Positions 56,535-63,349 of a stretch of DNA of 64,000 nt are shown in pieces. The translations under genes and the position numbers were made by a program. Below the pieces are notes generated by a model. The model did not search any database. It was not told the origin of the DNA and saw nothing but the letters and a program-made list of their open reading frames with translations. Numbering within the stretch: the first letter of the stretch is position 1; each line of letters opens with the position of its first letter. The stretch comes from Chitinophaga pinensis. Its GTDB lineage: Bacteria; Bacteroidota; Bacteroidia; UBA4408. The stretch lies in assembly GCA_945872355.1 (NCBI GenBank), contig CAMBZU010000001.1, forward strand, positions 16,676-80,675, in the 5' to 3' direction.

Positions 56535-56613
56535 AGGGAGATTAGCTCAGCTGGTTCAGAGCATCTGCCTTACAAGCAGAGGGTCACTGGTTCGAACCCA
56601 GTATCTCCCACCA
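56535..56613 (+). tRNA. tRNA-Val (anticodon TAC)
   Basis: Cloverleaf: acceptor GGGAGAT/ATCTCCC, D-arm GCTC..GAGC, anticodon stem TCTGC/GCAGA with loop CTTACAA, T-arm with GGTTCGAAC, 3' CCA encoded. Confidence 0.8.
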
Positions 56614-56734: not shown

Positions 56735-58282
56735 CTACATTAATATCAACTTCCATACAAAAAGGACTATCAATACTACAGCTAAACCCAAACCAAAAGC
56801 CAAAGCAAATTGTTTTCCCAATGTTTTTTTATCAGGAATAATCTCCTTCATTCTTTCAATAATTTCTACATCATCTTTTTTTGTTAAAAAAGTGACTATA
56901 AGCCATGTTAAAGTTGTCAGAAGCGTAACAATTATTAATCGTGCTTCCTCAAAAGCAAAGCCATAAACAACACTATTTTTATGATATAAATAGGGAAAAA
57001 GTAATGTATAAACACCCGACGAAATCATAGCACTTAATTGCGACCAAGCATTAATGCGATACCAAAACCATCGTAAAATATAGACAGGTGCAACGCCCGC
57101 AGCAATGCTAAATACTACCTTTAACAGCGATTGCAAACTATTTAAATTAAAAGCTATTACAACGCCGCATACAGATAAGAGCAGCATAGAAAAAAAAGAA
57201 ATGATTTGAAAATGTTTCTCACTTTGCTTTGGATTTAAGTACTTTTTATATAAGTCAACAGTTAAAAATGCCCCTCCCCAACTTAACTGAGATTCGGCAG
57301 TTGTTATAAACATTCCAAAAAATCCTATTAAACAAAAGATCTTAAAAAATTCGGGCACACAATTAAATATCGTGTAGATAAATTGAGATTCTCCTAAATT
57401 AGTTTGCTGTTGTGATAAAACTAAAATAGCCATAATTACAATAAAAAAGGATAAAAAGGCATAAAGTAAAATAGGAAACAAGGCAGTTAAAATAGCGTTG
57501 CGCTTGCCTTTTACAGCTGTAAATCTTGCCATTTCTGGCCCACCGCCATCAAATAGCTGAGCACTCCACCATTGTATAAAAACAAATGCAAACCAAGATG
57601 TCCAAGCAAGTTTAACTTCAGATGGTGGAAATAAATTTAATTTAAATGGACCTGAATTTTTAAAATTTACGATGGCAACTTTTAAGCCTCCACTTGTAGT
57701 GTACAAATAATAAAATGCCGTAAACAACACTATAAAATAAATAAACGAATGAAAGAAATCTGTTTTTAATTTAATTTGGAAACTATTTTTTAAAGCAAAT
57801 ACTATTAAAATTAACCCTGTTATGAAAATTGAAGAAAATTTATCAATATGAAAATAAATTTCAATCACTCGCGAAAAAGCCAATATATGATAACTTAAAA
57901 GGATGGCAACAACAAGCCCGCCAACATAAAAAGCACGAAATGCATGTAACACTTTGGCACTAAGACCTGAATAGCGAAATAATAAAAATTGATTATCTGT
58001 TATAAAATCAAGCTTTGACCACAAGGGGGCAAAAACAAATGGCACTATAAATGCGCCTAACAAACTCGACCAAAAAATCCAAAGGCCCCACATGCCTTGA
58101 GCGGCTAAAATGCCAGTAATAACTTGCCCCTGCTCAACAGTAACATAGTACATAAATAAGGAAATGCCCGAAATAAACCACGTAGTTTTTTTACTTGTTT
58201 TAAAAACGCCTTTTAATAATTCCCTTTTTTCAAAGTAAGTAATTAAAAGTATAACAACAATATAAATAAAAAGAACAACCAT
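56735..58282 (-). CDS. Sodium:solute symporter-family transporter
   Basis: 515 aa, about 13 TM segments, SSF-like N-terminal pattern (FISGISLFMYYV..GMWGLWIFW). Confidence 0.65.
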   Translation of the reverse strand: MVVLFIYIVVILLITYFEKRELLKGVFKTSKKTTWFISGISLFMYYVTVEQGQVITGILAAQGMWGLWIFWSSLLGAFIVPFVFAPLWSKLDFITDNQFLLFRYSGLSAKVLHAFRAFYVGGLVVAILLSYHILAFSRVIEIYFHIDKFSSIFITGLILIVFALKNSFQIKLKTDFFHSFIYFIVLFTAFYYLYTTSGGLKVAIVNFKNSGPFKLNLFPPSEVKLAWTSWFAFVFIQWWSAQLFDGGGPEMARFTAVKGKRNAILTALFPILLYAFLSFFIVIMAILVLSQQQTNLGESQFIYTIFNCVPEFFKIFCLIGFFGMFITTAESQLSWGGAFLTVDLYKKYLNPKQSEKHFQIISFFSMLLLSVCGVVIAFNLNSLQSLLKVVFSIAAGVAPVYILRWFWYRINAWSQLSAMISSGVYTLLFPYLYHKNSVVYGFAFEEARLIIVTLLTTLTWLIVTFLTKKDDVEIIERMKEIIPDKKTLGKQFALAFGLGLAVVLIVLFVWKLILM

Positions 58283-58358: not shown

Positions 58359-58652
58359 TTAAGCTGCATTATTCATTTTTTCTTCCCAAGCCATTTTTAA
58401 TTCTCCTTCATTTTTATACATATAAGATTTCTTCTTAGCATCCCATTTTATTGGGGCATTTAGCTCATTCCGCATAAACCTTAAATAATGATGAGTTGCT
58501 CGCTCGCTTGCAGCTAAGTAAGTGCTGAGTGTTTTTGGCGTAACTGTGCGCTCAGATTTTATGAGATTATTTATTCTTATGATTTTTCTAATATCCAAAA
58601 TGTAAAATAAATTTTTAATTATTGGTAAAAAAGTTTGCTGCTGTTTCTGCAT
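58359..58652 (-). CDS. Stand-alone winged-HTH protein resembling the N-terminal HTH_11 domain of WYL/DeoR-type regulators (possibly truncated)
   Basis: 97 aa. RTVTPKTLSTYLAASERATHHYLRFMRNELNAPIKWDAKKKSYMY resembles the wHTH of WYL-domain regulators; no WYL domain follows. Confidence 0.45.
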   Translation of the reverse strand: MQKQQQTFLPIIKNLFYILDIRKIIRINNLIKSERTVTPKTLSTYLAASERATHHYLRFMRNELNAPIKWDAKKKSYMYKNEGELKMAWEEKMNNAA

Positions 58653-58714
58653 TACTAATTAATAAAACATATTTTTTAAAAAACGTGAGTTTAAAGTATA
58701 ATTTCAAGTTCATC

Positions 58715-58728
58715 TTAGTTCAAGTAGT
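58715..58728. promoter_or_regulatory. Shared promoter-region motif TTAGTTCAAGTA (copy 1)
   Basis: 12-14-nt motif about 63 nt upstream of the wHTH gene start; identical core at 58907-58920 and as reverse complement at 60258-60271. Confidence 0.5.
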
Positions 58729-58906
58729 ATTTATTTGTAAAATAGTTTGTCGCTAAATATTTACAATAATATTTAAATACTGCAATTACAAGTTCTACTG
58801 AGCTAAAATTAGTGCTAGAGCTATAATTAAATTCCATTTTAAATGAATATATAATATTAGAACCGATTTACCTCTTTTTTAAATTACTGCACAATTATTA
58901 GTTCAT

Positions 58907-58920
58907 GTTAGTTCAAGTAT
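58907..58920. promoter_or_regulatory. Shared promoter-region motif GTTAGTTCAAGTAT (copy 2)
   Basis: 47 nt upstream of the start at 58967; perfect 14-nt inverted match to 60258-60271. Confidence 0.5.
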
Positions 58921-58966
58921 AAATATTTAGATTCTATGTTTATTATTTATTTAATTTTATAAAATT

Positions 58967-60067
58967 GTGCCCAAACCTAAATACATATTATCGCCGTACT
59001 TAAAACAAGGCTTGTTTTGGAAAGTAATTGAAACCATTGCATTTCCTATTTACACAAAGGCTGATTGCCGGAAGGTGTGTGAACTTTTTGAGCTAAAAGG
59101 ATTGCCTGTGATATCAGAAAGTACATTGTACCGACTTTTTTTATTGGAGGGAAGTGATAACATTCCCTATTTGCAAACATTAGATATTTTAGCTAAATTT
59201 TGTAATTACAAAGATTGGTACAGTTTAGAAAAACATTTAAACGAACTATCAACATTTGAATTGTCCTTTGGAAAAGTACATGTCAAAAATAGGAGTACAT
59301 TAAGTTTACTAACCTCTTGCATACATCATAACGAATTGAAATCAGTTTATGATTTTTCAGAACAATTTGATGGAAGCCTTGAATTACAAAAAAAAGGAGC
59401 GCTCGGCGAAGAATTTTATAAAGCACTAAAAACAAATCCAAACAAAAACGACTTATTCTTTAAAAATTTTTCCAAATTACCAATAGTTAGAGAAGCATTT
59501 TTTGAATATATGGCTGATCCAACTTTTATAATACCTAGTTACGAAATTGGCTTGAAATATTATCTACTTGGAATAAAACCAGAACAGTCATCAAAATCAT
59601 TACAAGACTTTGTTTTTGGAAATTGTCTATTGTTTAGGTATTATTTTTTAGATAACGATAAATCAGAGTCAAAGAAATTAGGCATAAAATTATATGAAAC
59701 GTATAATTTTTCGTCTAAGGATTTAGCGTCAATACATATCTTTCCAAAAATTCGTTTTTTGGCTTATAAAATATTTTATTTAAATATAAATGGCACAATA
59801 CAAGAAATACAAAAATATGAAATTTGGTTATTAAATTATGTTTCAAAAATTACACAAAAACTTACTTTAGAAGAAAAAAGAATTGTGCTCTTTACAATAG
59901 CAGATGTGTTTGTAAATAATACGAGCACTAAAGTTGATATGCATAATCAATTAAAGCTAATTTTTGGCGACGTATTAAATACATTGCCATCCTTTGTAAG
60001 TGCAACCTCACTGAAGGATGCGCTGCCTTACTTGAACAGAAATGCCGCTAAAATCTGGAAAATATAG
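58967..60067 (+). CDS. Hypothetical protein with N-terminal HTH-like segment (366 aa)
   Basis: LKGLPVISESTLYRLF resembles an HTH recognition helix; the remaining about 300 aa have no recognised motif. Confidence 0.4.
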   Translation: MPKPKYILSPYLKQGLFWKVIETIAFPIYTKADCRKVCELFELKGLPVISESTLYRLFLLEGSDNIPYLQTLDILAKFCNYKDWYSLEKHLNELSTFELSFGKVHVKNRSTLSLLTSCIHHNELKSVYDFSEQFDGSLELQKKGALGEEFYKALKTNPNKNDLFFKNFSKLPIVREAFFEYMADPTFIIPSYEIGLKYYLLGIKPEQSSKSLQDFVFGNCLLFRYYFLDNDKSESKKLGIKLYETYNFSSKDLASIHIFPKIRFLAYKIFYLNINGTIQEIQKYEIWLLNYVSKITQKLTLEEKRIVLFTIADVFVNNTSTKVDMHNQLKLIFGDVLNTLPSFVSATSLKDALPYLNRNAAKIWKI

Positions 60068-60257
60068 CTTAATAAATTATACCAATTACAACAAGCTATT
60101 GTGTCAAAAAGTGTGTTATACTTTTTAATGTTTTACGTACTAAAAAATAAGTACTATAATATATGATGCGCGATACGATATGCATCTTTTATAAAACATA
60201 ATTCGTTCATAAAAAAAACGAGGAATCAAAATTTAAGATTATTCCAATTATAGAGCA

Positions 60258-60271
60258 ATACTTGAACTAAC
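60258..60271. promoter_or_regulatory. Shared promoter-region motif ATACTTGAACTAAC (copy 3, inverted)
   Basis: 61 nt upstream of the start at 60332. Confidence 0.5.
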
Positions 60272-60331
60272 TTAAACTAAAATAAAAAATATCAAAAATA
60301 TATATTTGGTAAACATTTAAAAACTAAAATC

Positions 60332-60712
60332 ATGTCAGAAATCAGCGTTTCAGGAAGAACAAAAGTAAAATCATTTTATCAAGCTTTTTTAAAAGCTTAT
60401 CCTTATTTACATGCAGGCTTACAATATCCTGATGGAAAACCAGTAGATGCTGAATCTACCGTAGCAAATGCGCGAAGCAAATCTATAGGTGGCGATTATA
60501 CTCCAACTGGTGACTCAGAACTTTCAGTAAGAGGCAATTTAAATATTGGAACATTTGAAAAGCGTTTTAAAGAAATATTTTCAATTACATGCCAAGTGCA
60601 TTTTAAAAAGAATGGAAAATGGGTTGTAACGGGGCAGAAATATGATGCTATGACATTAAACGACGCAAACACCTTAATAAAGAATGAAGGTGCAGATTTA
60701 ATAGAATTGTAA
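60332..60712 (+). CDS. Hypothetical protein, tandem paralog A (126 aa)
   Basis: Shares the FY..F...YPYL N-terminal motif and the STVANARSKS / STLANARGRS block with the downstream ORF. Confidence 0.45.
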   Translation: MSEISVSGRTKVKSFYQAFLKAYPYLHAGLQYPDGKPVDAESTVANARSKSIGGDYTPTGDSELSVRGNLNIGTFEKRFKEIFSITCQVHFKKNGKWVVTGQKYDAMTLNDANTLIKNEGADLIEL

Positions 60713-60715
60713 GAA

Positions 60716-61189
60716 ATGGCGGAATTAAAAATAAACGGAAGATTAATAGTTGATAATTTTTATAAAAAATTTGAAGCCATATATCCCTATTTAAATCCAG
60801 CATTATTTTATCCCAAAGAAATAGGAGGAGGTGAAGTTGACACCTCCTCTACTCTTGCCAATGCAAGAGGAAGGTCTTTGAGGCAAGATATTAATGGCTA
60901 TACATCAACTGGTCAAGCAGAAATAAATGTAATAGGCGAAATGAAGATCAAAGATTTTCAAACCGAATTTGAAAATCTTTTCAAAGTAAAGTGTGCTATC
61001 AATTGCAGAATGCCAAATAAAAAGTTTTTTGGATTAGGTAAAACGGAATTTAAATGGGCCGCAGTTGTAAATACCGAATTCGGAAAACTGAATTTACATG
61101 AAGCAAATGCTGCACTCGAAAATCATGGTGCGCAAAAAGTAACTGAGGTTAGAACAAAAGGAAATAATTTGGGGGATAAATTCTTATAA
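60716..61189 (+). CDS. Hypothetical protein, tandem paralog B (157 aa)
   Basis: Paralog of 60332-60712; 3-nt spacing between genes suggests co-translation. Confidence 0.45.
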   Translation: MAELKINGRLIVDNFYKKFEAIYPYLNPALFYPKEIGGGEVDTSSTLANARGRSLRQDINGYTSTGQAEINVIGEMKIKDFQTEFENLFKVKCAINCRMPNKKFFGLGKTEFKWAAVVNTEFGKLNLHEANAALENHGAQKVTEVRTKGNNLGDKFL

Positions 61190-61269: not shown

Positions 61270-61479
61270 ATGGCAAGAACAATGAAAGACGGGAAATTTG
61301 GCGCAGAAGGTAAAGCATATGCGTTTGCTTCAGACAAAATACCCTGTGAAAACTGCAGAAAAATCTTAATTTATAACAAAAGCAAGGCTATACACACATA
61401 TAGTTCAATTGGTATTCTTGGAAAGAAAGACCATAAACAATTTTGCAGTTGGAAATGTGCAGAGCAGTATCATGGTTAA
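61270..61479 (+). CDS. Small zf-FCS/TRASH-like Cys4 zinc-ribbon protein (69 aa)
   Basis: CENC ...(about 30 aa)... FCSWKC arrangement (CxxC..FCSxxC). Confidence 0.45.
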   Translation: MARTMKDGKFGAEGKAYAFASDKIPCENCRKILIYNKSKAIHTYSSIGILGKKDHKQFCSWKCAEQYHG

Positions 61480-61588: not shown

Positions 61589-63349
61589 ATGCATTCAAAT
61601 ATAATTGATAAACCAAGAAAAGAAGGCGCCGATGATTTACTTGGCGTAGATAAATATACAGATGCCTTAATACAATTTATTGAGTCGTGCCAAATGCCTA
61701 CAACATTGGCTATTCAAGGGGAATGGGGAAGTGGAAAAACTTCTTTGTTAAATCAAATTCGCCACAGGCTTTGTGAATCAGTTTTAAATTCAAATGAAAT
61801 TAATAACCAAAAACCTTATTATGGTATTTGGGTAAATACTTGGCAATATTCTTTAATGAAAAGTAAAGATGAGGCCCTGATTGCAATTATTGGTGGACTT
61901 ACCAATGAAATATTAAACATCATAAAAAGCAAACACGAAACCAAAGCAACTGCAACAATAAATAAAGTAAAAGGTTTATTTGGTAAACTTGCAAAGGCAG
62001 GTGCAAAAGCTGCTATCAGTACAGTTGGGATTGAATCAGATATTGTTGATTCACTAACTGAAAGTGATGAAGGTGAAGTAAGTTTGATGCAATTTAAAAA
62101 AGCATTACAAGATGCCATTGAACAATGCTTAACGGAGGATAGAAAATCAGGAAATAATAATCGTGGTTTTATTTTTTTTATTGATGATTTAGATAGAATT
62201 GATCCGCCGGTTGCGGTTGAAATATTAGAATTAATAAAAAATATTTTTGAAGTTGAAAACTGCATTTTTATTTTGGCAATCGATTACGAAGTTGTTGTAA
62301 AAGGGTTGGTACCAAAATTTGGCCCACTTACAGAAAAGAATGAAAGAGAATTCCGTTCTTTTTTTGATAAAATAATTCAGTTACCTTTTTCAATGCCTAT
62401 TGCAAATTATGATGTTGCAAAATTCCTTATTCACTCATTAAAAGATATAGGATATATTGATGATAGATTTGAAAAAGACGAATCCCTTAAAGAAAAATTA
62501 ACTGATTTAACCTTATTATCCGTTGGTACTAATCCAAGATCATTAAAACGACTTATAAATACATTATCACTTTTAAATATCATTGGAAAAATTGAAGAAG
62601 ATGCTGAAAAACAAATTCATGAATTATTTATTAATTATGCATTAGTCTGCATACAGATTGCATATCCAAAAATATATGAATTATTAACGCAGGAACCTTC
62701 CTATAGAGAATGGACGGAGCAAACAGCAAAAAAATTAAGGTTACCCGAGTTAAATGAATCTCAATTAGTAGTTTTAAATAGCACCAATGAATTTGATGAA
62801 GAATGGGAAAAAGTGCTATTCAGAAAATGCCAACAAGATCCTTATATGGCATCTAGAGCATTTCAAATTTCGCAACTATTAAATTATATTATAGAATTGG
62901 TTCCGGAAAACTTAAATTTTACAGAAGAAATAACACGCATCATAGGATTTAGCTCAGTAACAAGTGTTAATCTTGATCCTACTCCAAAGACAATAATAAA
63001 AGGGAATAAAGTTAGATTTGAAGGCTTTGCATCCTTAGAAGAAATGCTGAAATTAAATAAACATTCAGCAGAATATATTTCTAATCTTAAAACAATTCAC
63101 GATAAAATAAAAGATGAATTTAAAGATTTAATCCAAATTAACTACACACCAAATTTTGTAACATTTATATGTGTTTTTCCAAAAGGAAGGAGTAAAACAT
63201 TTTTATTTATCAGATTCAAAAAAAGCAATGTCATGTTTGAATTTGCTGGACAAACAATCCTAATAAATCAATCATCTGATTTTACAACTGAAGTTATGGG
63301 TAAATTAAAGTTAGCTTTTAACAATTTATCATCAAAGGAATTAAATTAG
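61589..63349 (+). CDS. KAP-family P-loop NTPase
   Basis: Walker A GEWGSGKTS in the KAP context (LGVDKYTDALIQFIES...LAIQGEWGSGKTSLLNQI), Walker B FIFFIDDLDRIDP; 586 aa. Confidence 0.75.
   Translation: MHSNIIDKPRKEGADDLLGVDKYTDALIQFIESCQMPTTLAIQGEWGSGKTSLLNQIRHRLCESVLNSNEINNQKPYYGIWVNTWQYSLMKSKDEALIAIIGGLTNEILNIIKSKHETKATATINKVKGLFGKLAKAGAKAAISTVGIESDIVDSLTESDEGEVSLMQFKKALQDAIEQCLTEDRKSGNNNRGFIFFIDDLDRIDPPVAVEILELIKNIFEVENCIFILAIDYEVVVKGLVPKFGPLTEKNEREFRSFFDKIIQLPFSMPIANYDVAKFLIHSLKDIGYIDDRFEKDESLKEKLTDLTLLSVGTNPRSLKRLINTLSLLNIIGKIEEDAEKQIHELFINYALVCIQIAYPKIYELLTQEPSYREWTEQTAKKLRLPELNESQLVVLNSTNEFDEEWEKVLFRKCQQDPYMASRAFQISQLLNYIIELVPENLNFTEEITRIIGFSSVTSVNLDPTPKTIIKGNKVRFEGFASLEEMLKLNKHSAEYISNLKTIHDKIKDEFKDLIQINYTPNFVTFICVFPKGRSKTFLFIRFKKSNVMFEFAGQTILINQSSDFTTEVMGKLKLAFNNLSSKELN

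Follow-up and report, generated by a model that had tools for sequence, protein, structure and literature searches.

Several families of regulators offer points of comparison for the locus described here. Regulators of the RRNPP / Rgg type (ComR, Rgg2, PrgX, PlcR, NprR, and AimR) occur in Firmicutes, combine an N-terminal XRE-type HTH domain with C-terminal TPR-type repeats, are encoded next to a short secreted pro-peptide, and have their DNA binding switched by a bound peptide. Their known boxes are dyads. SinR and other XRE-family proteins (Cop, ClgR, C-proteins, and DdrO) are small repressors. PhoB, a winged-helix response regulator of the OmpR family, carries out class II activation from the Pho box, which consists of two direct repeats about one helical turn apart, where a head-to-tail dimer could recruit sigma. 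These repeats lie directly upstream of the −10/−7 element and displace the −35/−33 element. Bacteroidota sigma-A promoters carry a −33 TTTG and a −7 TAnnTTTG, and the expected spacing from −33 (TTTG/TTG) to −7 is ~19-21 nt. In Flavobacterium, the sigma-A −7 box has the consensus TAnnTTTG at position −12 to −5 (PMC9723704).

The predicted regulator p366 (366 aa; 58967..60067, plus strand) shows no sequence similarity to the RRNPP / Rgg proteins, no Pfam TPR or HTH_3 match was found in it, and its structural scores against their architecture are no better than those for generic solenoids. Its host belongs to the Bacteroidota rather than the Firmicutes, its predicted operator is a direct repeat rather than a dyad, and its neighbor is a 126-aa protein, p126, rather than a short secreted pro-peptide. 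The N-terminus of p126 (MSEISVSGRTKVKSFYQAF...) is unlike a signal peptide, and inspection of this conserved neighbor gave no adjacent pro-peptide gene. The predicted site resembles the Pho box in being a tandem direct repeat directly upstream of the −7 box that takes the place of the −33 element. The proteins differ, since p366 is predicted to be an XRE-type HTH joined to a helical-repeat domain, with neither a receiver domain nor a partner kinase. Compared with SinR and its relatives, p366 has no significant sequence similarity and carries a helical-repeat domain of ~260 residues that the small repressors lack; the architecture and position of its site suggest activation, whereas SinR-type proteins repress. 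Like other Bacteroidota sigma-A promoters, the target promoters have a perfect −7 box, set at a constant distance; they differ in having an operator half-site in place of the −33 element.

The locus lies in a 64-kb window, the whole stretch of DNA analyzed. Downstream of p366 on the plus strand are p126 (60332..60712), a small uncharacterized protein whose gene is the operator's most consistent predicted target, and its paralog p157 (60716..61189; 32-35% identity). Because p157 begins 3 nt after the p126 stop, the two genes are probably co-transcribed. On the other side of p366, the minus strand encodes wHTH97 (58359..58652), a small winged-HTH-like protein and probable lineage-specific target. 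Its start codon is placed only tentatively, given annotated lengths of 75-79 aa in relatives. Also on the minus strand, an SSF-family symporter (56735..58282) follows wHTH97 after a gap of 76 nt. At distant loci, an SSF symporter stands directly after the p366 homolog. None of p366, p126, p157, or wHTH97 has a match in Pfam, NCBIfam, PADLOC, or PDB sequences. A PifA-like KAP NTPase adjoins the locus.

The preliminary description reported a shared motif of 12-14 nt in three promoter regions. Exact matches to TTAGTTCAAGTA number three in the window, at 58715-58726 (+), 58908-58919 (+), and 60259-60270 (−); they fall within a span of 1.6 kb, spread over three intergenic regions, and no further copy exists in the 64 kb with one mismatch allowed. 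The 14-mer GTTAGTTCAAGTAT at 58907-58920 is, as reported, the exact reverse complement of 60258-60271. The distances of 47, 61, and 63 nt given to the starts at 58967, 60332, and 58652 are also correct, measured from the 14-mer or the 12-mer. The third copy, near wHTH97, is real, and the range given for it (58715-58728) exceeds the shared 12-mer by 2 nt. Taken alone, the 12-mer is of modest significance, with three copies seen against 0.73 expected and 3 of 100 shuffles reaching three. In every copy, however, a second half-site occupies the 10 nt upstream (CAAGTTCAtcTTAGTTCAAGTA, TTAGTTCAtgTTAGTTCAAGTA, and TTAGTTTAagTTAGTTCAAGTA). When up to 3 mismatches are allowed, the 22-mer has three matches where 0.01 is expected, and 0 of 100 shuffles reach three. 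The 12-nt motif makes up the 3′ portion of an element of ~20 nt, which is built from two direct repeats of 10 nt, AGTTYAAGTT-AGTTCAAGTA. The core first described is genuine, and the full site is this 20-nt tandem direct repeat rather than a 12-14-mer.

Three predicted operator copies follow from this definition. Copy 1 (CAAGTTCATCTTAGTTCAAGTA; 58705..58726, plus strand) has its half-site-1 side toward wHTH97, 52 nt from the ATG at 58652, and has orthologs in three other loci (L025, L031, and L037). Copy 2 (TTAGTTCATGTTAGTTCAAGTA; 58898..58919, plus strand) has its core side toward p366, 47 nt from the GTG at 58967; this 47-nt geometry is repeated in L021, L024, L029, L031, and L037. Copy 3 (TTAGTTTAAGTTAGTTCAAGTA on the minus strand; 60259..60280) has its half-site-1 side toward p126, 51 nt from the ATG at 60332, and the distance of 51 nt is identical in L012, L013, L017, L021, and L029. 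L037 shows signs of decay, with a truncated p126 gene and a substitution within the core of copy 3.

The element keeps a constant position relative to the promoter. The p126 promoter has a perfect sigma-A −7 box, TATATTTG (60301..60308, plus strand), exactly 20 nt past the operator, with 23 nt left to the ATG. This box is perfect in six p126-type promoters, and the genes of the 126-aa family share a fixed register of motif, 20 nt, TAnnTTTG, 23 nt, and ATG. At the p366 promoter, a putative −7-like box with one mismatch, TATGTTTA (58935..58942, plus strand), lies 15 nt past copy 2, with 24 nt separating it from the start codon; L024, L029, and L031 have TATATTTA at that offset. On the wHTH97 side, the candidate −7-like box is degenerate (GTTTTTTA; 58677..58684, minus strand) and lies 20 nt from copy 1. 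Its counterpart reads GATATTTA in L025 and GATATTTG in L031. Across 72 sites, a −7 box with at most one mismatch occurs at an offset of 20-21 nt, on one side only, in 34, compared with ~0.9 at each of the remaining offsets. Of the perfect TAnnTTTG boxes, 19 lie at offsets 20-21 and 2 at any other offset. The motif thus holds a fixed position relative to core promoter elements, as an operator would. Sites at p366 genes are more variable in distance (37-82 nt) than target sites. No TTG is present at −33 of the target promoters, where the proximal operator half-site (…AACTAA) occupies that position.

We also asked what happens to the element in other genomes. The preliminary description had named a lack of conservation in orthologous loci as grounds for rejecting a regulatory role; the motif is conserved beside homologs of the 366-aa gene, which it accompanies across ~30-93% protein identity. 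In a genome scan, about 15 Flavobacteriales/Bacteroidota loci have the exact 20-mer next to p366, p126, wHTH97, or K-channel genes. Among them are p366 homologs at 41-42% identity whose spacers defy alignment. The scan gave 2-5 exact sites per MAG. That scan returned 31 hits, of which about 12 to half are chance hits in unrelated AT-rich taxa, and the uniform expectation is ~35, so hit counts alone are no evidence. A metagenome scan of 76 loci (339 kb) gave 44 matches compared with 1-3 in shuffles, an enrichment of about 25-fold, with matches still present at 28-34% protein identity. Within the sites, position 9 is A in 85% and position 10 is G in 73%, neither position having been used for site selection, and information content falls sharply beyond the 20 nt. 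The element is thus found upstream of both regulator and target genes in divergent genomes and is enriched over background. Several loci have a single copy (L001, L014, and L041-L043), and in others the motif precedes K-channel, TerB, or EamA genes. Conservation is not universal. For 42 of the 76 ES-type genes, there is no site in the flanks examined at the threshold used, and some of these genes sit in operons behind another gene. The full site is missing in L035 and L036 (38% and 44% identity); L035 retains only the 9-mer core and a GTTCA...TGAAC pair. A literature search with the motif strings returned nothing relevant.

The model of p366 predicts an XRE-type HTH domain at the N-terminus (~1-100) followed by an alpha-helical repeat domain at the C-terminus. 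The N-terminal domain is modeled as a five-helix, lambda-repressor-like fold of the XRE / Cro-C1 kind, in which helices 2-3 form the HTH, and the predicted recognition helix, ISESTLYRLF, comprises residues 51-58. This HTH assignment rests on fold similarity at a moderate Z. A fold search with full-length p366 gave weak, generic helical-repeat matches, and the HTH became visible after the N-terminal domain was isolated. No significant match to HTH_3/HTH_31 or related Pfam models was found for p366, and 5-6 of 30 family members have weak HTH_32/HTH_33 matches (best E 0.014). The family, for which neither Pfam nor NCBIfam has a model, counts about 300 clusters at E≤1e-10, rising to ~2000 when the cutoff is relaxed to E≤1e-3; its representatives number 2086. 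A Pfam search of distant superfamily members (400-820 aa) gave no linking domain. p366 is the first protein to be studied from this unannotated family of predicted regulators, which belongs to freshwater Flavobacteriales.

If p366 reads the site, changes in its recognition helix might be matched in the DNA. In one clade, the helix has changed from ISESTLYRLF to VSGNTLYRIF, and the operator there keeps its architecture with half-sites altered from ACTTGAAC to ACTTAATC. A loose variant pattern with 3 mismatches cross-matched type-A sites, and a per-gene test on the discriminating positions was therefore used. Genes with an xSES helix have 34 type-A (ACTTGAAC) sites and no type-B site. All seven genes with a VSGN/VSTN helix have type-B sites (ACTTAATCnnACTTAATC; ACTTAATC-type), also ~52 nt from the ATG, and none has a type-A site. 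The site thus co-varies with the DNA-reading residues, in one clade and hence as one evolutionary event, and the joint change of helix and half-site points to p366 as the binder. A second candidate is the single locus L077, where the helix ISAATLYRLL occurs with ACTTGAGAcaACTTGATC; the DT, AA, and VS variants of the helix were searched for further independent co-variation, and this AA case alone is suggestive. VS-type paralogs adjoin type-A-like sites that may belong to a neighboring ES-type paralog, and DT-type genes have no clear tandem site.

It is quite likely, judging from sequence comparison, that the three copies are operators for p366, encoded between them, and that p366 controls its own expression and that of a few neighboring genes. 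With the repeats 10 nt apart, two HTH domains would sit in a head-to-tail arrangement along a single face of the DNA. Target promoters would be those of p126/p157 and probably of wHTH97 with the SSF symporter. With exactly 20 nt between its end and the −7 box downstream, the operator is predicted to cover about −54 to −33 at target promoters, where it would replace the usual −33 element. It is this geometry that suggests activation by p366 through contact with RNA polymerase, as at a pho box; a site over −33 could equally repress. At its own promoter, the site is inverted and 5 nt closer to the −7-like box, which suggests autoregulation. The helical-repeat domain is a likely sensor. Comparison supports the conservation, the register, and the co-variation; binding, the sign of regulation, and ligand sensing are what we infer. 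The proposal that the motif is a shared operator for an HTH protein, coordinating the module, gains support from all three.

Another protein could bind the same cis-regulatory site and p366 be merely one of the regulated genes, the candidates being wHTH97, a global regulator whose gene lies elsewhere, or a sigma factor of alternative type that takes the proximal half-site as its upstream element. We consider this improbable, though it is the alternative that deserves most weight. It would fit the position of wHTH97 beside copy 1 and the sites before genes with no p366 homolog within a few kb (L002, L015, L020, L028, and L007). XRE-type regulators, moreover, usually bind inverted rather than direct repeats, which counts against p366. 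Yet the motif follows p366 homologs to ~30% identity, and its half-sites change along with the p366 recognition helix. The wHTH97 family has only 8 clusters, with identities of at least 68% throughout, and turns up at 4 of ~100 loci. Being confined to close relatives, it is not the conserved binder, and of the two HTH proteins first put forward, the 366-aa protein is most likely the one. An alternative sigma is at odds with a downstream box that is the standard sigma-A −7 and with a 20-nt element whose two equal repeats are unlike a sigma upstream element. A transcribed RNA element (a leader, small RNA, or attenuator) might be expected in intergenic regions as long as these (264 and 314 nt). 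This is very unlikely, as no Rfam match was found at motif sites, the motif lies upstream of the −7 box and so outside the predicted transcript at target promoters, and it is used in both orientations relative to genes as a direct repeat, not a hairpin.

The outer copies had also been proposed to be terminal inverted repeats of a mobile unit, 58907-60271, carrying the 366-aa gene, and a perfect 14-nt inverted match does bracket one gene. The evidence leaves this proposal scarcely tenable. Similarity between the copies runs outward, not inward, the flanks are unrelated, no target-site duplication was found, and a third copy exists in direct orientation. In relatives, blocks of homology cross copy 2 and break at ~60150 and ~60392 rather than at the repeats, so the segment does not move as a unit. 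Single-copy loci are common, copies also front unrelated genes, p366 has no transposase or recombinase similarity in sequence and fold searches, and its family was not found among viral contigs. A reading of the copies as recombination sites was likewise ruled out by the synteny breakpoints. Functionless matches, arising by chance or left behind by local duplication within the AT-rich intergenic sequence, are least credible of all. The modest surprise of the 12-mer and the share of genome-scan hits in unrelated taxa lean that way; the expectation for the 22-mer, the enrichment beside homologous genes, the exact −7 register kept despite diverged spacers, and the conservation of unselected positions do not.

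As predicted from sequence, p366 and its site form a newly defined pair of regulator and operator that is conventional in kind: an HTH regulator acting on its own gene, together with a predicted operator. A broader idea, which we regard as speculative and doubtful, is that p366 and its superfamily of ~2000 clusters are the Bacteroidota counterpart of the Firmicutes RRNPP/Rgg proteins, that is, cytoplasmic sensors of peptides or small signals that switch variable accessory genes via a portable promoter cassette. If so, the 126-aa partner would be part of the signaling or effector step, and the genes switched would include p126/p157, the TerB/EcsC protein, the K+ channel, and transporters. Little of the transcriptional regulation in Flavobacteriales has been mapped, and for most of the regulators there no binding site is known. 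An unannotated family now has a concrete predicted operator and a defined promoter geometry, with a first clue to a recognition code in that p366 helix residues 51-52 track half-site positions 5-7. The predicted regulon is small, comprising the p126 family, the SSF symporter, the K+ channel, and the TerB-like protein, and regulon prediction would open up in hundreds of freshwater and marine MAGs.

The 12-mer TTAGTTCAAGTA is confined to three copies in the 64-kb window, at 58715-58726 (+), 58908-58919 (+) and 60259-60270 (-). Allowing one mismatch adds no further match. The 14-mer inverted pair reported in the preliminary description, and the distances given there to three start codons, were correct on re-measurement. 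By itself, the 12-mer is modestly unexpected (three found, 0.73 expected; 3 of 100 shuffles reach three). Alignment of the copies revealed a second similar half-site 10 nt further upstream in each. The repeated unit thus reads wwAGTTYAnnTTAGTTCAAGTA and is made up of two direct repeats at a 10-nt period. This 22-mer, at up to three mismatches, gives three matches in the window (33% G+C) against 0.01 expected: copy 1 (58705-58726, +), copy 2 (58898-58919, +) and copy 3 (60259-60280, -). Closest to the window are MAGs of freshwater Bacteroidota, several of which carry the label Crocinitomicaceae or Flavobacteriales.

A tRNA-Val (56536-56613, +), an SSF-family symporter (56735-58282, -) and the 97-aa protein wHTH97 (58359-58652, -) are followed by p366, the 366-aa predicted HTH regulator (58967-60067, +), the 126-aa p126 (60332-60712, +) and its 157-aa paralogue p157 (60716-61189, +). 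These 97-, 366-, 126- and 157-aa proteins have zero matches in Pfam, NCBIfam and PADLOC. p126, p157 and a 132-aa relative in related locus L021 (2029-2427) belong to a small family confined to Flavobacteriales. The p126 family has 64 homologues, every one annotated hypothetical, with frequent tandem pairs and no domain match. Further along lies a 69-aa ORF (61270-61479, +) with weak zinc-finger-like matches, all under curated thresholds (zf-FCS, E 0.004; YdaE family, E 0.006). Just past it, 12 nt upstream of a KAP-family P-loop NTPase gene (61589-63349, +; 586 aa), is a full-length Rfam match to the cis-regulatory DUF805 RNA motif (RF03081; 61508-61576, +; 65.3 bits, gathering score 51.1, E 1.3e-10). 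PADLOC matches to PDC-S20 (2e-32) and PifA (7e-31) make the NTPase defence-gene-like. It is 95-99% identical in loci L029 and L021, despite different genes separating it from p366.

We searched 185,579 species genomes with AGTTYANNTTAGTTCAAGTA and recovered 31 stretches; a uniform-composition estimate puts the chance expectation at ~35 matches. About 12 lie in unrelated AT-rich taxa. About 15 are Flavobacteriales/Bacteroidota MAGs in which the motif adjoins homologues of p366, p126 or wHTH97, or a K+-channel-like gene. The motif-adjacent p366 homologues are as low as 41-42% identical (L001, L012, L014, L017, L003). Scanning metagenomes with the p366 family alignment added 76 loci (339 kb), which contain 44 matches to the 22-mer at up to four mismatches versus 1-3 in ten shuffles. 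These matches occupy stereotyped spots immediately up- or downstream of the p366 homologue. A lack of conservation in orthologous loci had been named as evidence against a shared operator; the motif can still be recognised beside p366 homologues at 28-34% protein identity (L032/L033, L034, L078, L085, L100-L103). The frequency matrix of 67 distinct sites reads AGTTYAAGTT-AGTTCAAGTA, and information content falls to background directly beyond the 20-nt element. Position 9 is A in 85% of sites and position 10 is G in 73%, although neither was used in site selection. Viral contigs yielded no p366-family relatives, Rfam has no match at the motif sites, and both motif and family are absent from the relevant literature searched.

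The 71 close homologues of p366 are all annotated hypothetical. Profile searching extends the family to 302 cluster representatives at E≤1e-10 and to 2086 at E≤1e-3, and Pfam assigns no domain even to distant members. AlphaFold models the protein confidently (pLDDT 91.9) as all-alpha. Its predicted recognition helix spans residues 51-58, and S50, S52, Y55 and R56 are family-invariant. In one clade (L063, L064, L065, L066, L069, L071, L076), VSGNTLYRIF replaces ISESTLYRLF, with VSTN in L076. Each of these genes has ACTTAATCnnACTTAATC ~52 nt upstream, a site with the tandem architecture and register of the window motif but with different half-site positions. Genes with the ES helix (residues 51-52) carry the window-type site in 34 cases, the changed site in none and no site in 42; all seven GN/TN genes carry the changed site and none the window-type site. 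Fisher's test gives 4e-8, with the seven GN/TN genes forming one clade and thus representing one evolutionary event, not seven. A single further locus, L077, has helix ISAATLYRLL and site ACTTGAGAcaACTTGATC before its p126 homologue and may be a second co-variation event. In L063-L066 and L071, two p366-family paralogues are adjacent, one ES-type and one GN-type; the ES-type paralogue is preceded by another conserved block, AACCTTTTGTGACCCCAATTGTC, and lacks a window-type site.

The preliminary description proposed a shared operator for one of the HTH proteins. Conservation, register and helix co-variation point to p366, which on this comparative evidence probably binds the operator. The other candidate, wHTH97, also has a copy upstream of its gene, but is present in only 4 of ~100 loci. 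With 8 clusters in all and no identity below 68%, its family is too narrow to accompany a motif that spans the p366 family, and we rejected wHTH97 as the conserved partner. The one remote similarity seen for wHTH97 is with the HTH at the N-terminus of Mga (E 0.44). The start codon of wHTH97 is uncertain: 5 of 8 homologue clusters are 75-79 aa, beginning at the equivalent of residue ~19, and this shorter start would put the operator ~106 nt upstream instead of 52 nt.

The inverted copies bracketing p366 had also been read as possible terminal inverted repeats of a small mobile unit, in which case segment 58907-60271 would move as one. The two copies, however, are alike outward, not inward, and no target-site duplication was found in their flanks. 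In close relatives, homology is continuous across copy 2, and the block boundaries fall near 60150 and 60392 rather than at the repeats. Many loci have a single copy, and p366 lacks similarity to transposases or recombinases. We therefore rejected the mobile unit.

The proposed p366 operator also shows a defined promoter geometry. Six loci with p126-type genes share one layout on the motif side that bears the first half-site (half-site-1 side): motif, 20 nt, TAnnTTTG, 23 nt and ATG. Their spacers are unalignable. TAnnTTTG is the Flavobacterium sigma-A -7 box, occupying -12 to -5 (PMC9723704). Among 72 non-identical sites, 34 have this box (up to one mismatch) at offset 20 or 21 on the half-site-1 side, with ~0.9 at each other offset; perfect boxes number 19 at offsets 20-21 versus 2 at all remaining offsets. 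From the box position and fixed offset, the operator spans about -54 to -33. TTG is missing from the position where general promoter spacing places the -33 element. Copy 3 follows this target geometry, with box TATATTTG at 60301-60308, as does copy 1 on the wHTH97 side, with a degenerate box. Copy 2 presents its opposite end to the p366 gene; the -7-like TATGTTTA is 15 nt away and the start codon 47 nt, and L021, L024, L029, L031 and L037 have this arrangement too. Sites before p366 genes are more variable overall (37-82 nt, both orientations).

In a gene-by-gene tally of 80 sites, ~30 lie upstream of p366 genes, 9 of them facing the gene with the half-site-1 side and 21 with the core side, and ~19 lie upstream of p126-family genes (modal distance 51 nt). 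Four others lie before an Ion_trans K+-channel-like gene containing a GYGD filter, three before an EamA transporter, and one each before a TerB/EcsC-domain protein and a T9SS-secreted protein. In L001, L014 and L035, the SSF symporter is the gene directly after the p366 homologue. The channel-like proteins of L002, L015, L020 and L028 (523-532 aa) combine the Ion_trans domain and GYGD K+-selectivity signature with a long uncharacterised C-terminal domain; their operator lies 54-64 nt upstream, and the variant -7 box ends TTCG. In L029 a 409-aa TerB/EcsC-domain gene has been inserted between p366 and p126, and it is preceded by a duplicate of the ~125-nt promoter cassette, which comprises the operator, the -7 box, the leader and the first codons (L029 3420-3542 and 4953-5042; counterpart in the window 60213-60337). 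This suggests that the cassette is reused as new genes enter the locus. Two close relatives, L037 (4372-4463) and L031 (2065-2124), retain only the first ~20 codons of p126; in L037 the truncated gene is followed by a 445-aa protein whose N-terminus resembles a signal peptide. L037 is also the sole close relative with a substitution (TTGGAC) in the copy 3 core, adjoining the truncated p126, an anecdote consistent with relaxed constraint.

Full-length fold searches with p366 gave weak matches, with PrgX, ComR, AimR, Rgg2, Rap and NprR recurring among generic solenoids. The domain plan resembles that of RRNPP/Rgg regulators, but p366 has no sequence similarity to them, its C-terminal fold scores are non-specific, no adjacent pro-peptide gene was found, its operator is a direct repeat rather than a dyad, and its host phylum differs. 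Membership is not established. The genomic comparisons support a 20-nt tandem-repeat site that accompanies p366 genes, holds a fixed register with the sigma-A -7 box and changes in concert with the p366 helix. In the proposed mechanism, one face of the DNA would accommodate two p366 HTH domains in head-to-tail order. The site would stand in for the absent -33 element of target promoters, where bound p366 would recruit RNA polymerase; given binding, we lean slightly towards such activation. It would be analogous to PhoB at the pho box, and a pho-box-type class II site is the nearest functional analogue of the operator. At the p366 promoter, the inverted, closer site may serve autoregulation, and the C-terminal repeat domain may sense a signal. 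p366 and its operator appear, with good support, to be a new regulator-operator pair, conventional in kind, from a lineage that has been little studied.
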